Source: Candidatus Pacebacteria bacterium CG_4_9_14_0_2_um_filter_40_15
GTDB taxonomy: Bacteria; Patescibacteriota; Microgenomatia; UBA1400; PJMF01
Direction: 5' to 3'
DNA: 64,000 nt
Assembly: GCA_002788675.1 (NCBI GenBank)
Contig: PFRS01000001.1
Location: 15,009-79,008 of the forward strand
Part shown: positions 1 to 19,653 of the stretch, in pieces
How the letters are laid out: every line of letters begins with the position of its first letter
How positions within the stretch are numbered: position 1 is the stretch's first letter
Made by a program: the position numbers and the translations under genes
Notes under the pieces: generated by a model
What the model was told of the DNA's origin: nothing
The model's database searches: none
The model's input: only the letters and a program-made list of their open reading frames with translations

Positions 1-3000
1 TGGGCGGAAACCCAGTTGGAAACATTAATAATTACCCTTGGATGGGTTCCTTCGATTATGAAGCATCCCATCCCTCATGTGGTGTAACACTTGTTGCCAA
101 TAATTGGGCATTAACCGCAAAGCATTGTGTTGATGATCCTGCCAACAATGTGAGTTGGGAGGAAATACAACAACTAACTCCCATTGTTCGATTTAGTAGT
201 TTAGATATGTTTTCTGGTGGAAATACATTTGCAGTAGAAACTGTCGTGACTCATTCGAGTTCTGACTTAGCATTACTAAAGTTGACTCAATCTCCTGCTG
301 TTCCTCCTGTAACGATAGCTACTGATAATAGCCTAAACTATGTAAACAATAATGTAACATTATTAGGCTGGGGTGGACTAAATAATACAGTACACTCCAC
401 ATTGCAGCAGCTATCAACACCCATTGTTAATCCACTTGATTGCGCTGTTAGTCCAAGCTCAGAGTGGATTTGTGTTGGCAATTTTGATGGACAAAGCGCC
501 GTGAAAAGGGATAGTGGTGGACCACTACTGGCCATTAAAAATGGTCAATGGGTACAAATTGGTGTTGCTTCTGGTGGCTACGCAGACTGTGTAGGTAGCA
601 ATACATGTCCTTCACATTACACAAATATTGCACCATTTTACAATTGGATCAATGATGTCATCGACAGTCAACAAGGTGGTCAAGGAAAAGTTGTTGTCTA
701 TAATCAAGACAACTTGTCAGGTGATAGCAGAGATCTCACCTATACTGTTAACTTTGGATATGAAGGCTCAAGTGCCAACTTTGGCACTTCTTCACTCTAT
801 ATCGCTAACGGTTGGTCGGCATTTATCACAAACGGCAGAGATGACTATCTGTGCGCGAGCACAAGTCTTTGGGATTTAGACCAAGACTACTATCATCCAA
901 ACCCTGGAATGAAAATTCATGGGGACATTGCCTTCATTATTACCTATAACGACACATCCTGTGGCGGAGTAGATCAAAATAATGATGGTGTACTAGATAA
1001 TGGCATCCAGTTTCAAGAACCACAAAGTGCTACTGTTCATTTCTATAATGGTGGCTCTTCTGGCGGCTCAAGCAGCGGTGGCGGCACACCAACCCCACCC
1101 TCAACTGGCCACGCCAAGCTCTACAGCCTCTCCAACTACGCCAATCCCATTGGCAACTACGGCCTGGGCTCACACAGTTTTGCCCCCAACACCTACATTC
1201 ACTCTGTGGACCTGGAAGGTGCGGGTAGCTTTATTGTCTATGCTAATGATGGTCGCAGTCGTTGTTTTAGCGAAGACATTCCCAACCTGCAAGACCATGA
1301 AGAATGGTGGAAGGATACCATCCGGATGGATGTGTATGGTAATAATGTCTGCCCAACACCAAACAGCGGTGCTTATGTGGAAATTTGGCAAGCAGCTAAC
1401 TATGGTGGTAATAAACTGGGGAACTACTATGTGGGAACACATACGTTTGCTCCAGACACCTTAATGTACGCTGTTCGGATGAAAGATGGCGCTCAAAGCT
1501 TCGTGGTGCATGCAGCAGACGGCCGTTCGCGGTGTTTCACTGGCGATATGCCAACGCTGCAAGATCACGAAGAGTGGATGCGCGAAACCATTCGCATGGA
1601 CGTGTATGACACTGATGTCTGTGAACCATTCGACTCGAACTACTACACCGGTATTATCGGTGAATGGAACTTCGACAATATGGACGGGACTCGTGTCCTT
1701 AACACTGCTGGATATGGAGACATTTTTGTTTCAAATACCAGTGTGGTAGGTGCAGGGCTGCATGGAAATGGGCTGATTGCAAATGGAACAGACTATGCCT
1801 TCAAGGAACATCCTGAAGGTGGTCTCAACCCCAATAACGATCATCCATTCTCAATTTCATTTTGGATTCAAGGACAAACAACGAGTGGCTTAGATTACCG
1901 ATTCCTCTCAAATATCAATACAGGTGGTGGGTACGACGCTGGCTGGTGGCTCCGCATGGACAAATCAACTGGCAATCTAACCTACTTTTATGGAAAAAAT
2001 GAGGGACCTGGCTACAATCACGCCACTGGGCTCGGTATTACAGGCCTGTTAGATGGACAGCCACATCACGTTGTGATCACTTTTACCGGTATGAATGGTG
2101 GTAAAACCATTCGCACCTATAAAGATGGCGTCCGCGTTGATGACAAAATGATTTCTGGTGGAGGGGATATTTCCTACAACGGATATATGTACCTCTACGT
2201 GGCACACACAACAGTTGCCACTGTCGACGAGCTCAAAATCTACCGCAGCACACTCACACAATCTGAAGTTATGGACCTGTACCTCACTGACACGCCCAAT
2301 CTTCCTTCGCCCCCACAGTCTCAAATTGGACTTGCCGGGCACTGGGATTTTGAAACTGTCAATGGCACAACCATTGTAGACTCGTCTGGGCATAATAACC
2401 TGGTGGCATCGAACGCTTCTGTGATTGATGCAACTGGTATTTTCTCCAACAGTTTACAAACAAATGGCGTTGAGTATGTGTCTGTGACAAATCCCTCAGC
2501 CGCTTTGCGGCCAGGGGATAGTGATCCGTTTTCTGTAGAATTTTGGATTGATGGAAATTCGAGCATTGGAGTTGATTACCAATTCCTCTCGAACATCCAA
2601 ACCGATACGAACGACGCTGGCTGGTGGCTCCGTATGGAAAAATCGGCTGGACAGTTAACGTATTTCTATGGAAAAGGTGGACCTGGACAGAATCATGCAA
2701 CTGGTCTTGCTATCTCAGGTTTGTTAGACGGAAACCCACATCATGTGGTTGTCACGTTTACCGGCATGAATGGTGGCAAAACCATTCGAACCTACAAAGA
2801 CAGCATCTTGGTGGATAACACAGCCATTGTTGGTGGCGATCCAATCGCCTACCATAATAACATGGCGTTCTTCATCGCTAAGAACACGCAGGCAAATGTG
2901 GACAATGTTAAAGTCTACAACCGGATACTCACTGCAGAGGAAGTTGCAACGCACTTTCTTGACGGGATTATTCTGTTACCGTTGCCTGGTTCACAGCCGA

Positions 3001-6000
3001 GTGATATTGCAACGGATTGGCCGTATAGCCAAACCTTAACAATTGATCACACTCTTGTAGCAAATGACTTAGTTAACTTTCCTGTGTTTGTTTCTGGTGA
3101 TGTATTATCTGACCATCTGTTTTCTACAATGGTCACAGAAACGTATGCTCTACCTAATTCTGGAGTAGACTTAACTGGTCTAGCTGGTTATTGGAACTTC
3201 GACGAAGAAGGGGGCAGTACTTTTGCCGATCAAGTTGGTGTGAATGATTTCTTAACTACCAATGATTCTGTCATTGGTAACAACGGCGTTTTTGGCAATG
3301 GCATTACTACAGACGGAACCAATTATGCATATATTCCCAACACCACAAATGCTCTAAAGCCTGGTGATAACTCACCATTCTCTATTTCATTTTGGGTACA
3401 GGGACAAGGAGTTGCTGGAGGCGATCTTGCCTTCCTCTCCAATATGCAAAATCCAGGATCCAATGATGTCGGCTGGTGGTTTCGCATGGATCAACCAACT
3501 GGACATTTGTGGTACTACTATGCAAAAAACGGCATTGGACAAAATCATGCTACTGGCTTAGCTATTGATAACTTACTGGATGGCAAACTACATCACGTTG
3601 TGATAACACTCACAGGCATGAATGGCAGTACAAATAAAACCATTCGTACCTATAAAGACGGTGTCCTCATCGATAATAAAATCGTCAGCGGAGGTGGTTC
3701 AATACAATACCATAGCAATATGGCGCTGTACTTGGCCAAACTCACTGGAGTTACCATCGATGATCTTGCGATCTTTAACCGAGTGCTCGCTGCGTCCGAA
3801 GTACAAACCATCTATCAAGGCAATGCCAACTATATTGACGCAAGAACCATGCGTATAACTTCAGATTCCCAAGGATTCAATGAACTACCTTTCGAGGTTG
3901 TCTCATTTAATCCCAACAGATATGAAGCTGAAATTTGGGTCAAAACTGATGTTTCTGCAACCACCGATACCAAACTCTACGTATGGTACGGAAATGCTTT
4001 AGCTGATGCGCGGCCAAGTAATCATACGTATGGGAGTGGCTCAGTATGGAGTGAGTTTGGTGTAAGAAATCACTTTAATGGCACAACTGCCGATAGCACG
4101 TTACAGTATAAACATGCTGATACTGTTGGTATCAGCTTTGTGCAAAATGCTGTAGGTGAAGGAATAAAGTCAACTGGCGGCACCGATTTTGGCCTCAAGT
4201 ACGGAAATAACTTTTCAGTCTCAACTGGGGATGCGAGATGGTCATTCTGGCTAGAAACCAACTCACCAACCGCCGGAGATGTCATATTCTCTAAAGGTCA
4301 ATCTGTGCTTGATGGATACTACTTCCAAGTTGTATCTGGTAACGCACTTAGATTCACCTCTAACCAGAATGGGACCAGCCAGGCTGTTCTTACTTCAAGC
4401 ACTCTCTCGAACAATGTTTCACATAAAATTGATGTAATAAAGAATGGTAACACTATTTCTATCTACATTGATGGTGTTGAAGCAGCGTACTCAGGGAGTC
4501 AAACAATAAATACTCCAACAAGTAACTCTAAGGATTTTTATCTCTTGAGATATAACCTAGGATCACAAGTTGGGTATTCACTAGAGCTGCCTGCTAAACT
4601 TGATGAGTTTGCTTTCCAAGCAATGGCAAGAACACCAGACTGGATCCAAACTGAGTTTGTTAACCAGTCTGATCCTGCCGCATTCTTTGGGAATGAAATT
4701 CCTGAAAGAATACTGCCAAGCTACATAGCTTCAAACTGGCCCTATAGCCAAACAATCACCATCGATCATACTCAAGTAGCCGGTGACCTCACCGATTTCC
4801 CCGTTCTGATCACTGGCGACGTAATCACAGATCACGTGTTCACAACCTTGCCATCTCAAACAAAATCTTTCCTAGAAAGCGGTGTGAGTACTGCTAACTT
4901 AGCTGGATACTGGACCTTCGATGAAACCAGCGGAACAACATTTGCCGACTATCTGGGCGCCAACAACCTCACAGCCTCAACAGCTGCTGCCGTAGGAAGT
5001 CCTGGTGTATTTGGCAACGGTTTATCTGCAAACGGGTATGCCTACAAAACTAACACCACAAGTGCTCTAAAACCTGGAAATGAAACAGATTTTTCTGTGT
5101 CTTTTTGGGTACAGGGCAGTGGAGGAAGCGGAACAGATTACTCGTTCTTGTCGAATATCCATACCAATAGCACTGATGCCGGTTGGTGGCTTGCAATGAA
5201 CAAGCCTGGCGGCTCATTTACTTACTTTTATGGTAAGAATGGGTCTGGTCTGAACCACGCTACTGGCTTATCAGTGTATCCACTTCTCGATGGGAACCTA
5301 CATCATGTCGTCGTGACATTCACGGGCATGAATGGCGGCAAAATCATCAAAACGTACCGTGATGGAGTGCTTATCGACAACAAAGCCATTGCTGCAGTCG
5401 GAGCCAATATCGCCTACCATAGCACTATGTCCTTGCGCGTAGCCTATGCAACTGGCGCAATGGTTGACGATCTGGCCATCCTTAACCGTACTTTGAGTGC
5501 TGCAGAAGTACAACAAATCTATGCAGGAAATACACCTCAAGCTGATACAAGTAGCATCAGATTCACCTCTGATGCAGAAGGCTTCCAAGAGTTGCCATTC
5601 GAAATCGTGTCTCTTGATCCTATTTCGCATGAGGCAGAAATTTGGGTACAGAGTGATCTATCCTCAACAACGGATACGTCAATCTATCTGTGGTATGGAA
5701 ATGAAGATGCGCAGGCATACGGTGCAACAGCCACCTTTGGTAGTCGGGCTGTATGGTCGAGCTACAAAGCTGTGTACCATAATCCCTTCCATCAAACAGA
5801 TAGCACGGGAACTTACACTCTAAGTTCCGTTGGATCGAATGGTCCAACTTCAACTGATGGTGCTATTTTAAGCGGGACTGATTATGGAACAGTCAAACAC
5901 TCAACCAGTGGCAGTAGTCTCTCAAGAGCTCAGAAGGTTGGCAATGATATGGGCATTCAAGGTGGTTCGTATACTATCCAGATGCTTGTAAGAGCAAATG

Positions 6001-6470
6001 GCAACATTACCGGCTCAGGAACCAACATTGATGGACTTCTGGCAATTACTGATGCGCAGTCAGATTGGCGCCCAATGATCTACACAGCAGCTAAGAATGG
6101 CGCTAGCCTTATCTTCAATCAGAGTGGCATTGGTGGTGGAACAACTGGTAGTTTGACGATTCCTAATCCCATTGGAACAGTAGAGTATGAGTACCTCACC
6201 CTCACTTACAATGGCTCACTCCTTCGTGCTTACCATGATGGAGTAGAAATTGGTTCCATGACGGTAACAGGAACACCCGTAGGAGGTTTCAATCCCTATG
6301 ACGGCGTGATAATTGGTGGTGTGCCGGGGTGGAACGGCATCGATCAGCTCTACGATTCCCTCCATGACATAGACGAAGTGCGTATTTCTGCACAAGTTAA
6401 AAGTCCTGAATGGATTACTACAGAAAGTAATGTCCTAAAAAGCCCCGAGACATTCTTCATCACACCTTAA
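1..6470 (+). CDS. 3' portion of a giant secreted multidomain protein. The frame is open to position 1 and upstream residues (..YPWMGSFDY..) already match the trypsin N-terminal region, so the true start lies outside the window. Domains: trypsin-like serine protease, two tandem ~90-aa Cys-containing repeats, at least five LamG/concanavalin-A-like modules, and interleaved DUF2341-like segments.
   Basis: Trypsin catalytic motifs are present in order: His (WALTAKHC), Asp (SDLALLKL) and Ser (GDSGGPL). The module LDGxxHHVV(I/V)TFTGMNGGKTIRTYKDG recurs four times together with the AGxWxFDE...FWxxG LamG-like signature. The segments WPYSQT(L/I)TIDHT and ELPFE(V/I)VS...AEIWV...LY(V/L)WYGN recur and look DUF2341-like. 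The ORF is 6.4 kb with no in-frame stops. Confidence 0.75.
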   Translation, partial: GGNPVGNINNYPWMGSFDYEASHPSCGVTLVANNWALTAKHCVDDPANNVSWEEIQQLTPIVRFSSLDMFSGGNTFAVETVVTHSSSDLALLKLTQSPAVPPVTIATDNSLNYVNNNVTLLGWGGLNNTVHSTLQQLSTPIVNPLDCAVSPSSEWICVGNFDGQSAVKRDSGGPLLAIKNGQWVQIGVASGGYADCVGSNTCPSHYTNIAPFYNWINDVIDSQQGGQGKVVVYNQDNLSGDSRDLTYTVNFGYEGSSANFGTSSLYIANGWSAFITNGRDDYLCASTSLWDLDQDYYHPNPGMKIHGDIAFIITYNDTSCGGVDQNNDGVLDNGIQFQEPQSATVHFYNGGSSGGSSSGGGTPTPPSTGHAKLYSLSNYANPIGNYGLGSHSFAPNTYIHSVDLEGAGSFIVYANDGRSRCFSEDIPNLQDHEEWWKDTIRMDVYGNNVCPTPNSGAYVEIWQAANYGGNKLGNYYVGTHTFAPDTLMYAVRMKDGAQSFVVHAADGRSRCFTGDMPTLQDHEEWMRETIRMDVYDTDVCEPFDSNYYTGIIGEWNFDNMDGTRVLNTAGYGDIFVSNTSVVGAGLHGNGLIANGTDYAFKEHPEGGLNPNNDHPFSISFWIQGQTTSGLDYRFLSNINTGGGYDAGWWLRMDKSTGNLTYFYGKNEGPGYNHATGLGITGLLDGQPHHVVITFTGMNGGKTIRTYKDGVRVDDKMISGGGDISYNGYMYLYVAHTTVATVDELKIYRSTLTQSEVMDLYLTDTPNLPSPPQSQIGLAGHWDFETVNGTTIVDSSGHNNLVASNASVIDATGIFSNSLQTNGVEYVSVTNPSAALRPGDSDPFSVEFWIDGNSSIGVDYQFLSNIQTDTNDAGWWLRMEKSAGQLTYFYGKGGPGQNHATGLAISGLLDGNPHHVVVTFTGMNGGKTIRTYKDSILVDNTAIVGGDPIAYHNNMAFFIAKNTQANVDNVKVYNRILTAEEVATHFLDGIILLPLPGSQPSDIATDWPYSQTLTIDHTLVANDLVNFPVFVSGDVLSDHLFSTMVTETYALPNSGVDLTGLAGYWNFDEEGGSTFADQVGVNDFLTTNDSVIGNNGVFGNGITTDGTNYAYIPNTTNALKPGDNSPFSISFWVQGQGVAGGDLAFLSNMQNPGSNDVGWWFRMDQPTGHLWYYYAKNGIGQNHATGLAIDNLLDGKLHHVVITLTGMNGSTNKTIRTYKDGVLIDNKIVSGGGSIQYHSNMALYLAKLTGVTIDDLAIFNRVLAASEVQTIYQGNANYIDARTMRITSDSQGFNELPFEVVSFNPNRYEAEIWVKTDVSATTDTKLYVWYGNALADARPSNHTYGSGSVWSEFGVRNHFNGTTADSTLQYKHADTVGISFVQNAVGEGIKSTGGTDFGLKYGNNFSVSTGDARWSFWLETNSPTAGDVIFSKGQSVLDGYYFQVVSGNALRFTSNQNGTSQAVLTSSTLSNNVSHKIDVIKNGNTISIYIDGVEAAYSGSQTINTPTSNSKDFYLLRYNLGSQVGYSLELPAKLDEFAFQAMARTPDWIQTEFVNQSDPAAFFGNEIPERILPSYIASNWPYSQTITIDHTQVAGDLTDFPVLITGDVITDHVFTTLPSQTKSFLESGVSTANLAGYWTFDETSGTTFADYLGANNLTASTAAAVGSPGVFGNGLSANGYAYKTNTTSALKPGNETDFSVSFWVQGSGGSGTDYSFLSNIHTNSTDAGWWLAMNKPGGSFTYFYGKNGSGLNHATGLSVYPLLDGNLHHVVVTFTGMNGGKIIKTYRDGVLIDNKAIAAVGANIAYHSTMSLRVAYATGAMVDDLAILNRTLSAAEVQQIYAGNTPQADTSSIRFTSDAEGFQELPFEIVSLDPISHEAEIWVQSDLSSTTDTSIYLWYGNEDAQAYGATATFGSRAVWSSYKAVYHNPFHQTDSTGTYTLSSVGSNGPTSTDGAILSGTDYGTVKHSTSGSSLSRAQKVGNDMGIQGGSYTIQMLVRANGNITGSGTNIDGLLAITDAQSDWRPMIYTAAKNGASLIFNQSGIGGGTTGSLTIPNPIGTVEYEYLTLTYNGSLLRAYHDGVEIGSMTVTGTPVGGFNPYDGVIIGGVPGWNGIDQLYDSLHDIDEVRISAQVKSPEWITTESNVLKSPETFFITP

Positions 6471-13118: not shown

Positions 13119-13145
13119 TTCTTCAAAATACACTTAAAACTGATA

Positions 13146-13177
13146 TGAGCCAGGCAGAATGCCTGGCTCATTTTTTT
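13146..13177. terminator. Bidirectional intrinsic terminator between the KH-domain gene (+) and pilO (-)
   Basis: tgagccaggc-agaa-tgcctggctca, flanked by a T7 run on the plus strand and an A/T run on the minus strand. Confidence 0.65.
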
Positions 13178-13195: not shown

Positions 13196-14134
13196 TTATT
13201 CAGGTGTTCCACCGTCACCGGTAGTTACCTCAGGCGGTGGTGTAGGAGTAGAAAGGAGACCAGTATCTGTAGGTTGTTCTGTTTCAAGAGCAGGAGTTCC
13301 CTGATCGGTTTGATCCGTTTGATCACCTACATCAAGTTGTGACTTAAACTCATTTAATATTTGTAACTTATCAACTCCAAATGGATCTTCAGTGCCGCCA
13401 CCAACTATTTCAGTCTGTTCAGGCAAGTCATAATTCTGGAACTGCGCCAGAGCAGTGAGTACATTTCTATCTAGAGCCGTAAGTTTGGGAAGTGGCGCAT
13501 CAACAGTTGCTTTTATTGACTGGGTGAAGAAATAGGTACTGGTACTCAAAGTCGCTTTAATCTGACGATCACTGCCGCGATCAGCTCCGGATGCTCCCTG
13601 GCCAAGTGAAAGTTTTGTGATTGTAGTAAATGGTGAAATTTTTTCTATATCGAGTAAAAACTGCTGTAGACCATCAAATGAACCTTCAATCTCAAGCTCT
13701 AAATCAAGAGTGTCAACAGATGCTGCAGCTTGCTTAGTAGTTTTAGTGGCATCAGCACTGTCTGTAGAGATCTGGCCAGGACTGAGTTCAAAGTTGCCAA
13801 CACTGATATTGTTTGCAATAGCAATGCTGTTTAAACTAGTCAAAAACTCGAGCAAAGGTTTTTTCGAGGGCAGAGCAGAGTTAACAACATCAGCCTGGGA
13901 AAATTCAGTCGTTGAATCGATAGACTGCAGTTCTAATAACTTGGCTTGCAGTTTTTCTAGCGTAGGATGTTCTTTACTATATTTAGTGTTTAAACTCAGT
14001 GACTCTGTGATTTGAGGATAAATAGCAAAAGCAACAATAGCCATACCAAGAGCTACTAAACCAATGGTGTACACGAGCTTACGTCGTGTTATCCAAATGA
14101 TCTTGTAGTTAAATGCTGTTTTCTTTGCTGCCAT
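13196..14134 (-). CDS. pilO: PilO-like type IV pilus assembly protein with a Thr/Pro/Asp/Gln-rich C-terminal extension
   Basis: N-terminal TM segment, a coiled-coil, a periplasmic domain, and a position downstream of pilM-pilN. The call is mainly positional. Confidence 0.45.
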   Translation of the reverse strand: MAAKKTAFNYKIIWITRRKLVYTIGLVALGMAIVAFAIYPQITESLSLNTKYSKEHPTLEKLQAKLLELQSIDSTTEFSQADVVNSALPSKKPLLEFLTSLNSIAIANNISVGNFELSPGQISTDSADATKTTKQAAASVDTLDLELEIEGSFDGLQQFLLDIEKISPFTTITKLSLGQGASGADRGSDRQIKATLSTSTYFFTQSIKATVDAPLPKLTALDRNVLTALAQFQNYDLPEQTEIVGGGTEDPFGVDKLQILNEFKSQLDVGDQTDQTDQGTPALETEQPTDTGLLSTPTPPPEVTTGDGGTPE

Positions 14135-14140
14135 AGTTTC

Positions 14141-14770
14141 CTATTGATTCACTTCTTCGTTTTCTGTGGTGTCTTGTACTAAGCCTTCTTGTGCGCTTGC
14201 TGCTACGTCTTCAAGATACGTTGAACCACCAAGAATAATAGTAAGTTTAATCGAGTATGCTCCAGATTCACCACGGCCAAGATCGCTTTTCTGTACCTTT
14301 GCATACTTACTGAGAACCTCATCTGATTCTAGAACTGTAAACACGTTTTCTAAATCAAAAACACTTGGAGCTGTGAGGGTGAATGACACAATGCTGTTGT
14401 CATCTTCCGAGTAATCAATACCACTAATGATCACTTGAGGACCGAATACCTGTGAAAAATAGACCATTGCCTCTTGCTTGTCTTGACGTTTACCAAACAA
14501 GTCTGAGAGAGCACGAAGCTTATGGGCAAACACGTTATAGTCTTTTTCAACCTGTTCTTGAGCCTCAATAGCCTTACGCGCATTTGCCTGGTTATCTTTG
14601 AGCGCGTTAATTCTATACAGAAAGAAAAATCTCAGACCAATGGTAATTAAAAAAACTACGAATACTACAATCACACCAATGATGGCGTATTGAAACCACT
14701 TCTCATCCTGGACCTGTTGTGCAGTGAGACGTTTTCTTCGATTCGCAACAAAATTAATACCTTTGGCCAT
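14141..14770 (-). CDS. pilN: PilN-like fimbrial assembly protein
   Basis: 209 aa, a single N-terminal TM helix (YAIIGVIVVFVVFLITIGL), and located directly after pilM. Confidence 0.5.
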   Translation of the reverse strand: MAKGINFVANRRKRLTAQQVQDEKWFQYAIIGVIVVFVVFLITIGLRFFFLYRINALKDNQANARKAIEAQEQVEKDYNVFAHKLRALSDLFGKRQDKQEAMVYFSQVFGPQVIISGIDYSEDDNSIVSFTLTAPSVFDLENVFTVLESDEVLSKYAKVQKSDLGRGESGAYSIKLTIILGGSTYLEDVAASAQEGLVQDTTENEEVNQ

Positions 14771-14771
14771 G

Positions 14772-15779
14772 TTACATTTCTCTCAAGAGTAATCCCATAC
14801 AGACACCCATTGCAGGTGGATTAATAGTTTCAGGAATAGCGCCATCTATGCCCGTAAAAGGAGCAGCAACAAGAACTTCTGTACCCAATTCTTGCGCAAT
14901 ATACTGCACAAGATTAGGCATAGCAGCTGTACCTCCCGATAGGACAACACGCTGAATTGATTCAGTTGGATTCTGAGTCACAAAAAATTGAATTGATTTT
15001 TTCATTTCAGCTGTCAAAATCTGAAGACCAGGAAGCAACGCAGCAGCAACTTTACCCTGGAATTGAGTTTCATCAAGACCATAGGTGCGTTTGTATTTTT
15101 CAGCTTGGTGCTGGTCAAGACCGACCGTTTGTTCCAGAGCCTTGGTAAGAAGTTGACCACCATTCATATGACTGGTAACAAAAGTGAGTTCACCTTTTTG
15201 AATAATAGACATATTCATACTCGAGGCGCCCAAGTGGACAATCATTGTATTTGGATCTTCTGGAGTAAACATGAGCGAACGAATAAGTGAAATCATGTGT
15301 GTTTCAACGAGTGAAGGCTCAATACCTAAAATATGGAACATATCAACAAAACGATCGACAATTTGTTTACGAGCACCAACGAGTAAAATTCTCATTGGCT
15401 CTTTTTCCTTTTTGGGTCCACGATAGAGCACTTGGTACTCAAGAGCTAATTCTTCTGGAGGAATTGGAATATGCTGTTCGGCTTGCCACCCAATTGCTGA
15501 AGCAAGCTCTGCATCGCTGAGTGGTGGAATTTCAATGATTTTAGTTGAGATGACTGATTCAGGGAGTGAAATACGCACATCTGTTCGAGGGAGATCATTG
15601 TCAACAATAACTGATTCAATCAGATTAACGAGTTTATCTTGACTAACATCGTCGGTCGGAACAGCAATACCTGTCGTGTTAAAAACTTCGGCAATACGTT
15701 CAATTTTGGGCTTTGGACCAGCAGTTCCAGCAATTGCTTTTATACTGTAGGTTCCAATATCAAGTGCGAGTGTAGACAT
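14772..15779 (-). CDS. pilM: Type IV pilus assembly ATPase-like protein PilM (actin-like fold)
   Basis: N-terminal LALDIGTYSIKAIAG phosphate-1-like motif, 335 aa, and the pilMNO gene order. Confidence 0.75.
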   Translation of the reverse strand: MSTLALDIGTYSIKAIAGTAGPKPKIERIAEVFNTTGIAVPTDDVSQDKLVNLIESVIVDNDLPRTDVRISLPESVISTKIIEIPPLSDAELASAIGWQAEQHIPIPPEELALEYQVLYRGPKKEKEPMRILLVGARKQIVDRFVDMFHILGIEPSLVETHMISLIRSLMFTPEDPNTMIVHLGASSMNMSIIQKGELTFVTSHMNGGQLLTKALEQTVGLDQHQAEKYKRTYGLDETQFQGKVAAALLPGLQILTAEMKKSIQFFVTQNPTESIQRVVLSGGTAAMPNLVQYIAQELGTEVLVAAPFTGIDGAIPETINPPAMGVCMGLLLREM

Positions 15780-15814: not shown

Positions 15815-16612
15815 TTACGGATTTTGTGTAATACTAGCTCCTGAGTACAACGCATAGTCCATATATGCAGGACCCGTTGGTAATGTACGCGACACTTCAA
15901 TATTTCGTTCCTCATCGCCTTCTGAATATGTGCCTGTTGAAGAAATGACGTGATATTGAGTTGGGAACCCAACTCCACCAGATATTTTAATGTCGGTATC
16001 GGCGTACACAGGTTTAATTCTCATGAAAAGAGGGTTCGGCGGAAGAGATTGATTAAAGGGTGATCCAACAGAGGTAATGGTAAATTGATGGCGATAGGTG
16101 TTACTAGCACCGGTTGCCGTCCCGTCAAAAAAGTTATCTGAGTCATGACCATTGCATGTTGGTCCAAATGGAATTACTTTTGTACGAACCGTAGCTGGAT
16201 TAGTAGTTGTATCACTGTAAAAAATATTTGCAACTAATGATGCACGCTCAGAACAATCTGCTTCGGATGCCCACTCAAAATTTACACCACTGGTATAGCC
16301 AGTCAAGTCGATATGGACACTTGCACCTTCTGCAACTCGAGTATCGAGCGTGCTACTGCCAGTAACATTATAGGCGACATCAACACCATCGATAGATAAC
16401 GTACCTTGGCCTTGCAACTCACTCAATGCTTGTTCAATTCCAGATTCAGCAGCATTAAAAACACGGGCACTTTCAGACTGCTGATCGGAAAGAAACAGTT
16501 CTTGGGTTGTTCGTGTTGCTAAAGACAAACCAATGGTAAGTAAAACTACCATAATGAGCAGCACTACAACAGCGACTTGTCCAGATTGGGGAGTGGTTTT
16601 TTTATTTTGCAT
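15815..16612 (-). CDS. PilX-like pilus assembly or minor-pilin-associated protein
   Basis: The N-terminus QSGQVAVVVLLIMVVLLTIGLSLATRT...AAESGIEQAL matches the PilX N-terminal domain pattern. Confidence 0.45.
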   Translation of the reverse strand: MQNKKTTPQSGQVAVVVLLIMVVLLTIGLSLATRTTQELFLSDQQSESARVFNAAESGIEQALSELQGQGTLSIDGVDVAYNVTGSSTLDTRVAEGASVHIDLTGYTSGVNFEWASEADCSERASLVANIFYSDTTTNPATVRTKVIPFGPTCNGHDSDNFFDGTATGASNTYRHQFTITSVGSPFNQSLPPNPLFMRIKPVYADTDIKISGGVGFPTQYHVISSTGTYSEGDEERNIEVSRTLPTGPAYMDYALYSGASITQNP

Positions 16613-16723
16613 AGTACGTACACACTACTACTATGCATCATCATACCCTAAAAACTAGGTCACTCGCAAGGGGAGAGATGAGGAAAAAATTTGGAACTTT
16701 TTGCAGAAAATTATTGCTGAAAA

Positions 16724-17287
16724 TTAACGATACTCTTCGTTATCTTCCATATCCTTTTGAATCAGGTTACGAAGATACACAGATCGTGGAATTTTTTTAT
16801 TCTTTGCAATCCAGTCAAGGTAGTTTCCGATGGCAGGGGAGATGAAGAAGTTGAAGCGGACGTCTGCTGATTCGGCAGCATTCTCAAGAATGATATCGAG
16901 CACATCATCAATGGTGTCTTCATTGTAACCAACAATTTGCAATTTTTCTTTTTCAACACCCTTAATACTATTTGGTGGGTTTGATTTTTTGTCATTATAC
17001 AAAGCAATAACCGGTTTATGTAATGAGACAGCTACTGCAAGCTCATAACCAATACTAATATCTGGTTTAGTTGTTTCAAAGACAACTACATCGGCTGTTT
17101 TTATCCAATTCATAGATCGCTCGACATAAAACTTTGCCTCTTGAGGACTTTCCTTATCTATATCATCAAGAGTTCTACTAAGATAATGGTCTGTAACTAA
17201 TGAATGGTCAAGCTTGTGAATAAACTGACAAATTTTTTTAAAATCAGATTTATCACCATCTACCGCTGCTGCGAAGTGTACTTTCAT
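16724..17287 (-). CDS. Paralog A: DNPH1/Rcl-like (nucleoside 2-deoxyribosyltransferase family) domain fused to a C-terminal ribbon-helix-helix DNA-binding domain. The catalytic Glu is retained.
   Basis: VVVFETTKPDISIGYELAVAVSLHKPVIALY matches the Rcl/NDT core (PSLGVGYELGRAVALGKPIL), including the nucleophile Glu in GYEL. The C-terminal DVRFNFFISPAIGNYLDWIAKNKKIPRSVYLRNLIQ is a typical RHH (beta strand followed by two helices). Confidence 0.5.
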   Translation of the reverse strand: MKVHFAAAVDGDKSDFKKICQFIHKLDHSLVTDHYLSRTLDDIDKESPQEAKFYVERSMNWIKTADVVVFETTKPDISIGYELAVAVSLHKPVIALYNDKKSNPPNSIKGVEKEKLQIVGYNEDTIDDVLDIILENAAESADVRFNFFISPAIGNYLDWIAKNKKIPRSVYLRNLIQKDMEDNEEYR

Positions 17288-17296
17288 ATTAACATC

Positions 17297-18331
17297 CTAT
17301 ATTACCTTTTTAATTATTCTCTCAATATCTTTATTTAATTTTTCTCTTTTTTGAGTGACGCTATGACTTCGTTCATTAGACAAATCCTCTGCATGCAGTT
17401 TTGAAAGATTATTTGAGACAAAATGTAGATATCCAAACTGCATGCCCGAATCATGTGCAGCTTTAGCAAAATACCCTATCTCAGAATCAACTAATGAAAA
17501 ATTGCTAAATAACTTAACCCAATCTTTATTCTCAAACAAAACAGAAGGAGAATTAACATGACTCCCCTCAAAGATTAAGTCGAGATCTAGATCTGCAAAT
17601 GGATTTTTCCACTTTATAATCTCACCATTTATATAGCAAATACCACCAGTAGCCAATACCTGGTTTGGAATTATCGACTCATCAATACCACCCACTTTAG
17701 CAGTAAAAAATATTTTCTTATGATGTAATTCGCTAAGATAATGAACAAGTCTATACAAAATGTCTCCCCAAAAACTAAATTGAAGTATTAAATAAGTAAC
17801 ACTTTTTCCATTTGGTAGTGTTTCAACAGCCCAAAGAAATCTATCATTCTCTTGCCAAACTGTAGTTTCATCTGTGAAATTAAACAATCCTGATCCAACA
17901 ACAATTGCATCTGTTACCTCCAGAACATCTAACTCAAGATCATATATTTCTTGCCAACACTCTTCCTGTGACGGCAAAATATAAGTAACATGATCATATT
18001 TTTTCCCCTTAAGTGCTAGATATGAACTTATCAAAGATGCATAGTGTCGGACATAATCTATTCCAGGAAAACATTTAATGTATAGTACATTTTTAACTAC
18101 TTCAGCTGTTGGTCTCTGCCAGTTAGTCAATTTTCCACCTTTTTCGTATTTTGAAATTATGGCGGTTCTATCGTAATTACCCACCACAATAATTTCATCG
18201 TAAAGATCAGTATCAACATCCCTTATCAGATGATGCATCTTTATGTCAATATATTTCCCCAAACTTTTCCCCATACTATGCGTATCTGGATCAATCACAG
18301 TATGTGGATTTAGTTGTCTATTATTTTTCAT
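17297..18331 (-). CDS. Divergent PNP/UDP-phosphorylase-family protein (purine nucleoside phosphorylase or nucleosidase-like fold)
   Basis: YDEIIVVGNYDRTAIISKYE resembles the PNP N-terminal ADVVLMPGDPLRAKYIAE motif. DSEIGYFAKAAHDSGMQFGYLHFVSNN aligns residue-for-residue with the PNP C-terminal [26 protein letters not shown] motif, with Asn in place of the usual Asp as in trimeric PNPs. The gene is AT-rich. Confidence 0.5.
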   Translation of the reverse strand: MKNNRQLNPHTVIDPDTHSMGKSLGKYIDIKMHHLIRDVDTDLYDEIIVVGNYDRTAIISKYEKGGKLTNWQRPTAEVVKNVLYIKCFPGIDYVRHYASLISSYLALKGKKYDHVTYILPSQEECWQEIYDLELDVLEVTDAIVVGSGLFNFTDETTVWQENDRFLWAVETLPNGKSVTYLILQFSFWGDILYRLVHYLSELHHKKIFFTAKVGGIDESIIPNQVLATGGICYINGEIIKWKNPFADLDLDLIFEGSHVNSPSVLFENKDWVKLFSNFSLVDSEIGYFAKAAHDSGMQFGYLHFVSNNLSKLHAEDLSNERSHSVTQKREKLNKDIERIIKKVI

Positions 18332-18430
18332 TGAACTCTCTACTTATCATTACAAAGTCATATCTGGCAATTATACCAAATTAGCACCACAATTGTATCA
18401 TATGAAATCAAGAAGTAGTGAGGATATATT

Positions 18431-18461
18431 GATTTATAGGGTATAATTTAAGTGATATAAT
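18431..18461 (+). promoter_or_regulatory. Candidate sigma70-type promoter for paralog B, inside the AT-rich divergent intergenic region
   Basis: TTGATT (18431-18436), then 16 nt, then an extended -10 TGATATAAT (18453-18461). The ATG lies 27 nt downstream. Confidence 0.3.
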
Positions 18462-18487
18462 AAAAAACTTGTAAAATACAAAAAAAT

Positions 18488-19066
18488 ATGAAAATTTACT
18501 TCACAACATCTGCAAGAGGAGATGAAGTCATTTACTCAAATTCATTGAATATCTATAAAAAAATTAATGACTTAAACCACATACATGTTGATAATTTCTT
18601 TGAAGATATGAACGTCTCGAAGGTCTATTCTGACAATTATGAGGATAAGAAAAAACGATTTATAGATGCAACGAAAAATATCAGAGATGCAGAAATCATT
18701 ATTTTAGAGGTATCAACACATAGTTTATCAATGGGATATTTATTAAAGATGGCGCTCGAAAGTGGAAAGCCTGTAATTCTGCTACATACTCAAAATAAAC
18801 CACCTGCATTTGCTGAAGGCATTGATAATAGTAAACTTCAAATATGGGAATATTCACCAGAAGATATAAAATTTATTTTAACTGACGCAATTGATGCTGC
18901 AAAAAATGAAATAGATGTACGCTTTAACATACTCCTTACATCAGAACTATATGATTACATAAATCAACAAGCTAAAAATTCAAATATCAGTAAGTCTGCA
19001 TTCATAAGAGATTTAATTAACAACAATAAAAATAAAGACCTAGCAGCGGCATACAAAATAGAGTAA
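18488..19066 (+). CDS. Paralog B: NDT/DNPH1-like domain fused to RHH, with the catalytic Glu replaced (GYLL in place of GYEL). Probably an inactive sensor or regulator version.
   Basis: Collinear with paralog A at roughly 35-40% identity over 190 aa (for example KLQIxxY, DVRFN, SxxYIRxLI). The core is HSLSMGYLLKMALESGKPVILL, and the RHH segment is DVRFNILLTSELYDYINQQAKNSNISKSAFIRDLIN. GC content is very low, under 30%. Confidence 0.5.
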   Translation: MKIYFTTSARGDEVIYSNSLNIYKKINDLNHIHVDNFFEDMNVSKVYSDNYEDKKKRFIDATKNIRDAEIIILEVSTHSLSMGYLLKMALESGKPVILLHTQNKPPAFAEGIDNSKLQIWEYSPEDIKFILTDAIDAAKNEIDVRFNILLTSELYDYINQQAKNSNISKSAFIRDLINNNKNKDLAAAYKIE

Positions 19067-19068
19067 AA

Positions 19069-19653
19069 TTGAAAGTAGAGAAGAGCAGAAATTTAGTAGG
19101 ACTGAGCGGAATTTTTATGCAACACAGTGATTATCAAAAAAACTCACAGAATGGCTTTACTTTAATCGAGCTACTTATCGTGACTGCGCTGATGGTAATT
19201 CTCACACTCACTGTTTCAGCAATGTTCATGACGTTCATGGTTACTAATGCTCGCACAAATACAAAGAATACTCTCAAGGTTGAAGGTTCGTATGCATTGT
19301 CGCAAATTGAATTTATGCTACGAAATTCATACAAGTTAGTTGAAAATTCTGATACACAAGTGTGTCAAGGTAATATGGACCGCATTGCACTTGAATCTAT
19401 TGATGGAGGACAAACGGAGTTTTTCCTTGATACATCCGTAACGCCACCAAAGATTGCCTCAAACAGTGGTACCTATTTAACTTCTGATACTGTTCAAGTC
19501 GCTAACTTACAGTTTGATTGTTCCGAAAGATATAGTGGTGAACGATCAGTAACAATTGATTTTGACCTCAGCAAAGTTGTTCCATCAATTTCCAATACCA
19601 CTAGTGAAGAATCGTCACAACACTTCTCATCGGTTGTCTCACTGCGCAACTAA
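19069..19653 (+). CDS. Type IV pilin-like protein on the opposite strand to the rest of the pilin cluster. An alternative start is the ATG at 19117.
   Basis: Class III signal-peptide / N-methylation motif QNGFTLIELLIVTALMVIL. The start overlaps the stop of paralog B with a 2-nt gap. Confidence 0.55.
   Translation: MKVEKSRNLVGLSGIFMQHSDYQKNSQNGFTLIELLIVTALMVILTLTVSAMFMTFMVTNARTNTKNTLKVEGSYALSQIEFMLRNSYKLVENSDTQVCQGNMDRIALESIDGGQTEFFLDTSVTPPKIASNSGTYLTSDTVQVANLQFDCSERYSGERSVTIDFDLSKVVPSISNTTSEESSQHFSSVVSLRN

Follow-up and report, generated by a model that had tools for sequence, protein, structure and literature searches.

DNPH1 (Rcl), the nucleoside deoxyribosyltransferases (NDTs) and MilB have been characterised as proteins without a C-terminal ribbon-helix-helix (RHH) domain, and the RHH regulators NikR, MetJ and PutA carry their strand-helix-helix element at the N-terminus, in one polypeptide with a small-molecule-binding domain. 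Here we describe a locus in which a DNPH1-like domain is followed by a C-terminal RHH. It lies in a 64-kb stretch of the uncultured Candidatus Pacebacteria bacterium CG_4_9_14_0_2_um_filter_40_15 (contig PFRS01000001.1, positions 15,009 to 79,008; this whole stretch is the window, and coordinates are those of the window unless another locus is named) and consists of three genes, which we call A, M and B. A and B are paralogs with the DNPH1-like domain and an RHH or RHH-like tail, and M encodes a protein with a predicted nucleoside-phosphorylase (NP-I) fold from a family without a name. Our literature search found no description of a DNPH1-RHH fusion, nor of a DNPH1-like sensor domain on an RHH regulator, and we know of no characterised member of the M family. 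The three genes form a conserved module drawn from two families, one of DNPH1-RHH proteins that is undescribed and one of NP-I enzymes that is uncharacterised, and the triad is an old, conserved part of a type IV pilus locus rather than a recent import or an anti-phage island.

The comparison with described systems shows where this module departs from them. The full catalytic set of DNPH1/Rcl and of the CMP hydrolases MilB and BlsM is present in no single paralog here, the equivalent of Asp69 having been lost throughout the family, and, unlike DNPH1 and MilB, this family has expanded into tandem paralog arrays in Patescibacteria. A and B share with NikR, MetJ and PutA the union of a strand-helix-helix and a small-molecule-binding domain, but their RHH, which is predicted to bind DNA, is C-terminal rather than N-terminal. 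M is only 8-14% identical to NP-I enzymes (PNP, MTAP, MTAN, uridine phosphorylase, AMP nucleosidase), falls below the Pfam cut-off, and differs from them in about 140 extra residues with invariant Arg and Lys and in an invariant L-S-N-E-R motif. The SLOG sensors (the SLOG domain of ThsA and, at the level of the fold, TIR/ThsB) resemble A and B in their Rossmann-like nucleotide-binding fold and its partly non-catalytic use. Unlike those conflict sensors, A and B stand in housekeeping loci with neither a defence context nor an effector of known type, and their output would be a DNA-binding tail.

Paralog A (16724-17287, minus strand, 187 amino acids (aa)) and paralog B (18488-19066, plus strand, 192 aa) are related from end to end (28% identity, E 1e-23). 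A scores above the Pfam cut-off for Nuc_deoxyrib_tr and matches mammalian DNPH1/Rcl with an E value of 1.5e-15, and B matches Rcl at 4e-6. A profile of the whole family finds DNPH1 at 3e-22 and true nucleoside deoxyribosyltransferases only at 0.036. By sequence and by fold the proteins belong to the DNPH1/Rcl-NDT superfamily (PF05014), and these matches bear out the DNPH1/NDT-like core that a first-pass annotation, made from the DNA letters and their open reading frames (ORFs), had proposed for both.

Functional sites were read after rat Rcl had been added to an alignment of 142 family sequences. At the column of the Rcl nucleophile E93, A has Glu (Glu82) and B has Leu, as the first-pass annotation had stated. 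The other sites of A are replaced: Y13 by His4, D69 by Ser, S17 by Ala, R19 by Asp10, S87 by Asp76 and S117 by Asn. B retains Tyr4 at Y13, the motif Ser8-x-Arg10-Gly11 at S17, R19 and G20, and Ser at S87, and has Ala at both D69 and S117. The 5'-phosphate pocket (S17, R19, S87, S117') is thus represented by none of its four residues in A and by three of four in B, and the catalytic Tyr13 plus Asp69 set of Rcl is complete in neither. The earlier description of one catalytic and one Glu-less paralog therefore needs amendment: the difference in Glu stands, but the site of A is not an intact DNPH1 site and B holds a 5'-phosphate pocket. Judged from these residues, the Glu-less paralog would be the holder of the nucleotide 5'-phosphate pocket, as expected of a non-catalytic binder.

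The residue patterns of A and B recur as subtypes of the family and are therefore not peculiar to this genome. Across the 142 sequences the E93 column holds Glu in 85, Leu in 39 and Val in 12. Type A, to which residues 1-140 of A belong, comprises 55 sequences, all with His at Y13, mostly with Asp, Glu or Asn at R19, and 33 with Asp at S87. Type B (57 sequences, including the DNPH1-like domain of B) keeps S17 in 56, R19 in 54 and S87 in all 57 and has Leu, Val, Ile or Met at E93. The 25 sequences of type C have the Tyr, both Ser and the Glu, and lack the Arg. An equivalent of Asp69 is absent from every subtype in this alignment. Glu-less copies make up 57 of the 142 family sequences and 48 of 133 metagenome copies.

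The DNPH1-like domain is followed by the tail, residues 141-182 in A. An AlphaFold2 model of A shows an extended stretch (141-150) and two helices (151-164 and 168-182), giving a strand-helix-helix; the block means of the predicted local distance difference test (pLDDT) over this tail range from 77 to 96, with the minimum over 141-150. When the tail of B was scanned alone it passed Pfam RHH_1 (PF01402 group; 21.4 bits against a cut-off of 20.5), and B has a weak PHROG match to Arc-like repressors (E 0.0023). The same Pfam scan of the isolated tail of A gave no significant RHH match; other family members have RHH_3 matches below threshold and in the same register as the tails of A and B. We consider the RHH assignment sound for B, and reasonable for A from its homology to B, the same-register matches in its relatives and the modelled topology. 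The "clear" RHH that the first-pass annotation saw in both proteins thus holds for B, which passes RHH_1, but for A it depends on homology and topology.

No part of the family is better conserved than this tail. Its residues R144, F145, N146, R173 and I176 show little or no variation among the 142 sequences, and the R-F-N-F of its strand resembles what we take to be the corresponding strands of Arc and Mnt (H-F-N-F and Q-F-N-L). By the same Arc/Mnt pattern, positions such as R144 and N146 presumably point from the strand towards the DNA. Invariance of the tail, including such presumed DNA-facing positions, is what would be expected if it reads DNA rather than serving dimerisation alone.

We then surveyed the spread of the family. 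A word-indexed search returned 439 matches, nearly all of 185-195 aa and, where the organism is named, from Pacebacteria, Woesebacteria or Microgenomates. With E<=1e-30 as the limit, an exhaustive search gave 317 clusters (50% identity), and nearly all of them span the whole profile. In the 83 loci in which we counted 133 copies, tandem arrays of two to five paralogs are frequent, and recurrent neighbours are recR (23), cysS (15), ybaB (13), pilX/pilM (11), dnaX (10) and a thymidine-kinase-like gene (9). Subtype is associated with neighbourhood: Glu is missing from the copy nearest pilX at 9 of 11 loci and present in the copy nearest recR at 17 of 21 (Fisher p 0.0016).

The family has a second home, seen in loci L136, L139, L141, L143, L158, L164 and others, in which dnaX-ybaB-recR is followed by a thymidine-kinase-like or methyltransferase gene, a Glu-bearing DNPH1-RHH gene and often then cysS. 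Arrays of four or five paralogs with mixed subtypes, near-identical RHH tails and differing pockets occur in L108 (4291-8115), L155 (3841-8233), L105 (5082-7635) and L100 (4968-8774). A dCMP deaminase gene adjoins DNPH1-RHH copies in some Patescibacteria loci (L009, 5415-5933; L105 and L110), which is a further link of the family to deoxynucleotide metabolism.

M (17297-18331, minus strand, 344 aa) lies between the two paralogs. It scores 19.2 bits against Pfam PF01048, under the gathering cut-off of 25.1 and over residues 255-341 only, and searches of PDB sequences with M itself and with an M profile gave nothing significant. Since the Pfam score is under the cut-off, we assign the fold from a structure model, which predicts with confidence the nucleoside-phosphorylase fold (PNP/MTAP/MTAN/UP); the PNP fold put forward in the first-pass annotation is upheld in this way. 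Across 56 diverse members of the M family, 25 positions are invariant, and many of these are Arg or Lys; the set includes R55, E63, K64, K67, N70, R73, K212, N223, E267, the L-S-N-E-R motif (317-321) and R329. Weak, non-significant alignments to E. coli sequences place N307 at what we take to be the general-acid Asp of PNP and MTAN (PNP D204, MTAN D197) and E284 at the presumed ribose-binding Glu; position 307 is Asn in 39 and Asp in 17 of the 56 members. In such weak alignments the presumed PNP R87 column holds mostly Tyr, Phe or Ile in the family and Thr in the M of the window, and the presumed PNP S90 column holds the invariant Lys212. The earlier claim of Asn at the general-acid position fits this register, but the alignment scores are non-significant, and we treat all these site assignments as leads and not as results.

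Relatives of M, all called "hypothetical proteins", come mostly from Actinobacteria and also from Patescibacteria, an archaeon, Parachlamydiaceae, Bacillota, a Planctomycete-like organism and a fungus. M and a type-A copy are adjacent in every Patescibacteria locus examined (L010-L013, L099, L100, L004, L024), either divergent or co-directional and either near pilus genes or away from them, and the result lists of the searches with M and with A have eleven contigs in common. This adjacency and the common contigs indicate that M and type A are a conserved pair. Elsewhere, M relatives stand beside thymidine kinase and NUDIX genes, beside a dCTP deaminase/dUTPase gene and an unclassified P-loop NTPase gene, whose product we read as kinase-like, and beside an NrdG-like radical S-adenosylmethionine (SAM) activase gene. 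In fusions, the M domain is C-terminal to a Ppx/GppA phosphatase (together with DUF952 in L014) or N-terminal to NUDIX (L014, 7890-10376; L016, 1863-4067; L019, 7830-9536; P0099). The Ppx/GppA and NUDIX fusions suggest that the substrates of M carry phosphates. On the evidence of gene and domain context, the neighbours and fusions point to (deoxy)nucleotide chemistry and do not fix the reaction.

An ORF check placed the three genes at the coordinates and on the strands given in the first-pass annotation, and the operon layout proposed there holds: 9 bp separate M from A, both on the minus strand, and B diverges from M across an intergenic region of 18332-18487. On the side of A, a PilX-like gene (15815-16612, minus strand) follows after 111 bp and heads pilX-pilM-pilN-pilO, with pilM at 14772-15779, a pilN-like gene at 14141-14770 and a pilO-like gene at 13196-14134 (13196-15779 overall, minus strand). 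On the side of B, a pilin-like gene with a prepilin N-methylation motif (19069-19653, plus strand) lies directly 3' of the paralog. The first-pass annotation had B overlapping this gene, which is not so: the stop codon of B ends at 19066 and the longest pilin ORF begins at 19069, the likely start being the ATG at 19117, judged by where the alignments of relatives begin. Four species-level relatives (L010-L013; PilM identity 85, 83, 73 and 62%) share this order, with a divergent NDT-RHH copy followed on the other strand by M, A, pilX, pilM, pilN and pilO. Their divergent copy is B-like in L010, L012 and L013 and nearer A than B in L011, and a pilin-like gene adjoins it also in L010 and L011. 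In more distant Patescibacteria a Glu-less copy stands directly upstream of pilX, without M.

The folds, residue patterns, subtypes, gene order, family distribution and subtype-neighbourhood association described above suggest to us a reading in which DNA binding, the identity of the ligands, the regulatory targets and the direction of the reaction of M are proposed. In this reading, which we hold to be about evenly poised between right and wrong, A and B are one-component regulators of the RHH type with a DNPH1-derived nucleotide pocket that control M and the pilus genes. The pocket, taken over from a nucleotide N-glycosidase, would sense a nucleotide-related ligand and the Arc/CopG-type RHH would read DNA. 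B would be a pseudoenzyme-type sensor that binds a (deoxy)nucleoside 5'-monophosphate without cleaving it, a prediction made because the 5'-phosphate pocket and the Tyr are retained and the nucleophile is lost. It appears to be transcribed with the minor pilin gene, belongs to the subtype that normally stands just upstream of pilX-pilMNO, and would act on the B-pilin unit and perhaps also on the divergent promoter of M. A, the obligate partner of M, probably binds, and may process, an unphosphorylated ligand, since acidic residues replace its phosphate binders; this ligand would be a substrate or product of M. A would act on the M-A unit, which in turn may read through into pilX-pilMNO. M itself would be a nucleoside or nucleotide N-glycosidase or phosphorylase of the NP-I fold with a remodelled phosphate site. 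In this way the module would couple the expression of M and of the pilus genes, which serve DNA uptake and attachment, to the (deoxy)nucleotide pool of a nucleotide scavenger.

Bacteria of the candidate phyla radiation (CPR, Patescibacteria) are unable to synthesise nucleotides and are believed to rely on pili and on DNA that they scavenge, and to our knowledge no mechanism is known by which they sense nucleotide supply and control pilus genes. A DNPH1-derived sensor joined to an RHH, with its Glu-less, phosphate-binding subtype beside pilX-pilMNO, is a concrete candidate for such a link between nucleotides and pili. The DNPH1-RHH family would then also be a clean case of an enzyme fold turned regulator.

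Several observations weigh against this regulatory reading. Pilus genes are near only about one quarter of the family loci with sufficient flank, so that the general role of the family cannot be control of pili. Most members score no higher than the threshold with RHH models (E<=0.01 is reached by 2 of 44 full-length members), and a profile of the tail scored against sequences of Arc, Mnt, CopG, NikR, ParD and MetJ at the level of shuffled controls. No operator was found when k-mers (k = 6 to 8) upstream of 43 family genes were compared with 261 control intergenic regions, the counts being at chance level. Near-identical RHH domains among paralogs are unusual for transcription factors that must avoid cross-talk and leave room for hetero-oligomers or a non-specific role. 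Finally, without an equivalent of Asp69 the Glu-bearing copies may be inactive or carry out other chemistry.

The first-pass annotation had offered two models, an RHH that couples nucleotide sensing to transcription and a self-regulated nucleoside-salvage island, and each is compatible with our data. In the latter, A would be an active N-glycosidase of (deoxy)nucleotides or nucleosides and M a nucleoside phosphorylase that together recycle bases and (deoxy)ribose from DNA imported through the pilus, the RHH would merely autoregulate these genes, and B would be a degenerate duplicate. CPR bacteria lack de novo nucleotide synthesis, the nucleophile Glu of A is retained within a DNPH1/MilB fold, M combines the NP-I fold with (in the register of the weak alignments) the ribose-binding Glu motif, and elsewhere M stands beside nucleoside and nucleotide kinases, as would fit a route from base to nucleoside to nucleotide. 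Against this, the Glu-less copies are a conserved subtype with an intact phosphate pocket, which does not suit a one-off degenerate B, A lacks the equivalents of Tyr13, Asp69 and the phosphate-binding residues, and the RHH is conserved more strongly than the presumed catalytic domain. Taking both sides into account, we view salvage as possible and rather unlikely. A further alternative, which strikes us as improbable, is that the tail is an element of dimerisation or hetero-oligomerisation, or a non-specific tether to DNA near sites of uptake or replication, and not a sequence-specific reader. DNPH1 (Rcl) active sites are completed across the dimer interface, and the near identity of tails among paralogs of one genome locus, the failure to find a common operator and the position of family genes beside recR, dnaX and ybaB as well as pilus genes would all fit such a role; the match of the B tail to RHH_1 and Arc-like repressors and the invariance of R144 and N146, which suggests base contacts if we have placed them correctly on the Arc/Mnt pattern, speak for sequence reading instead.

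In the first-pass annotation the locus appeared as an AT-rich, horizontally acquired insert, possibly of an anti-phage or other conflict system. Its domains, the loss of Glu in B, the operon layout and the AT-richness have held up, but the framing by horizontal transfer and defence has not. The locus does contain the GC minimum of the whole window (0.305 in this kilobase against a mean of 0.425 and a standard deviation of 0.032 for 1-kb stretches), and the M-A pair is found in other contexts in Patescibacteria L004 and L100, so that at some point it has moved as a unit. However, the gene order and the GC dip are common to all four species-level relatives (their pil genes have a GC of 0.37-0.47, but B lies at 0.28-0.33, M at 0.33-0.38 and A at 0.36-0.37), and low GC is a property of the family, DNPH1-RHH genes elsewhere lying on average 3.8 GC points under their neighbours (76 copies; 88% lower; p 2e-12). 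The region has no integrase, and a tRNA scan and a search for flanking repeats found none. A recently acquired genomic island is therefore largely refuted already, also by the standard that the first-pass annotation had set for its own reading, and scarcely credible. The simplest history is that the pilus locus has long housed the type-B gene and that the M-A pair, being portable, was added beside it in the ancestor of the clade, an old event. The conflict reading makes the triad a set of SLOG/NDT-like sensors with a nucleosidase effector that senses or depletes (modified) nucleotides; it fares little better and is in our judgement very improbable. PNP-fold effectors occur in some defence systems, the domain of A is akin to TIR/ThsB at the level of the fold, and tandem arrays of diverging paralogs would suit such a system. 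Yet PADLOC-DB gave no significant match for any of the three (A to TIR-like ThsB, E 0.0014 and 16.5 bits; B to PDC-M13C, E 0.027; M none), neither the DNPH1-RHH nor the M family has a relative in IMG/VR, and a scan of PHROGs gave no support. The genes hold a fixed position by housekeeping operons (pilMNO, dnaX-ybaB-recR) across species, and the neighbours of the locus are pilus and housekeeping genes, with no other defence genes among them.

Outside Patescibacteria, the best-defined setting of the M family is a cluster present in at least 62 actinobacterial species (loci L017-L089, e.g. L037, 5293-11590, and also L006, 4337-10607) with genes for QueD, QueE, GTP cyclohydrolase I, a protein that we call U, the M homolog, a Tmk-like kinase, DUF2797 and a SAM methyltransferase; no QueC was seen in it. 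In Nocardiopsis (L006), NUDIX and 5-formyltetrahydrofolate cyclo-ligase genes lie nearby on the opposite strand, and other actinobacterial genomes have conserved opposite-strand ORFs without annotation at that position. U is a protein of 273 aa without a Pfam match, and a PDB search with its profile was empty; as a guess, it may be a TIM barrel of the TGT/DpdA kind. Two archaeal proteins of about 600 aa (P0029 and P0088; E 6e-27; L015, 7194-9011) carry U in one chain with the M domain, on the N-terminal side of the latter, which indicates that U and M are functional partners. Our literature search found nothing on this cluster, nor on DUF2797 in such a context. M is thus a widespread, strongly conserved and unnamed branch of the nucleoside-phosphorylase fold, and its contexts (the QueD-QueE-FolE cluster and the Ppx/GppA and NUDIX fusions) point to unexplored nucleotide chemistry. 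A wider proposal, which we offer tentatively and regard as doubtful, would join the two families: DNPH1-RHH proteins would be a DNPH1-derived family of transcription factors in Microgenomates/Patescibacteria, with subtypes that are pseudoenzyme sensors of different (deoxy)nucleotide species and gate type IV pilus genes (for DNA uptake and host attachment) and dnaX-recR-linked genes as nucleotide supply changes, and M would found a new class of NP-I enzymes that, with GTP cyclohydrolase, QueD, QueE and the fused U, serves an undescribed 7-deazapurine or pterin nucleotide pathway in Actinobacteria and archaea.

At the start of the PilX-like gene we found a perfect 9-nt inverted repeat, TGCATAGTA-N12-TACTATGCA, at 16608-16637, the 3' arm of which contains the ATG. 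This repeat is unique in the window, where none is expected by chance, and folds better than shuffled sequences (z -3.15). Two relatives also have it at the pilX start, L010 and, with a shorter spacer or loop, L011. Two roles can be considered for the repeat, that of an operator and that of an RNA hairpin in which the start codon of the pilX-like gene is hidden; the variable spacer among relatives favours the hairpin over an operator of fixed geometry, though not decisively. The half-site of this palindrome, GCATAGTA, occurs 48 times in the window where 42.6 are expected, which is no enrichment. The intergenic region between M and B has an imperfect palindrome at 18358-18405 and two GGTATAAT extended -10-like boxes, one per strand (minus, 18369-18377; plus, 18440-18448). 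All four relatives share the (T)GGTATAAT extended -10 box upstream of M. Promoter-like sites as a whole occurred at the level of shuffled sequences, and only individual sites are usable. An Rfam scan of the region was negative, with no riboswitch.

Downstream, a hairpin terminator with a 12-bp stem lies 3' of pilO at 13145-13171. A scan from M to this hairpin found no terminator-like site except a weak one on the minus strand inside M (17569-17545; a 9-pair stem with three G-C pairs), and the minus-strand transcription unit likely ends at the hairpin after pilO. We dismissed NCBIfam matches to DarT, RelB-like and other models, whose scores were far under the cut-offs, and a phmmer match of B to Photorhabdus lectins, which is a sum of weak repeat matches. 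At the start of the window, a very large ORF of 2142 aa occupies positions 42-6470.

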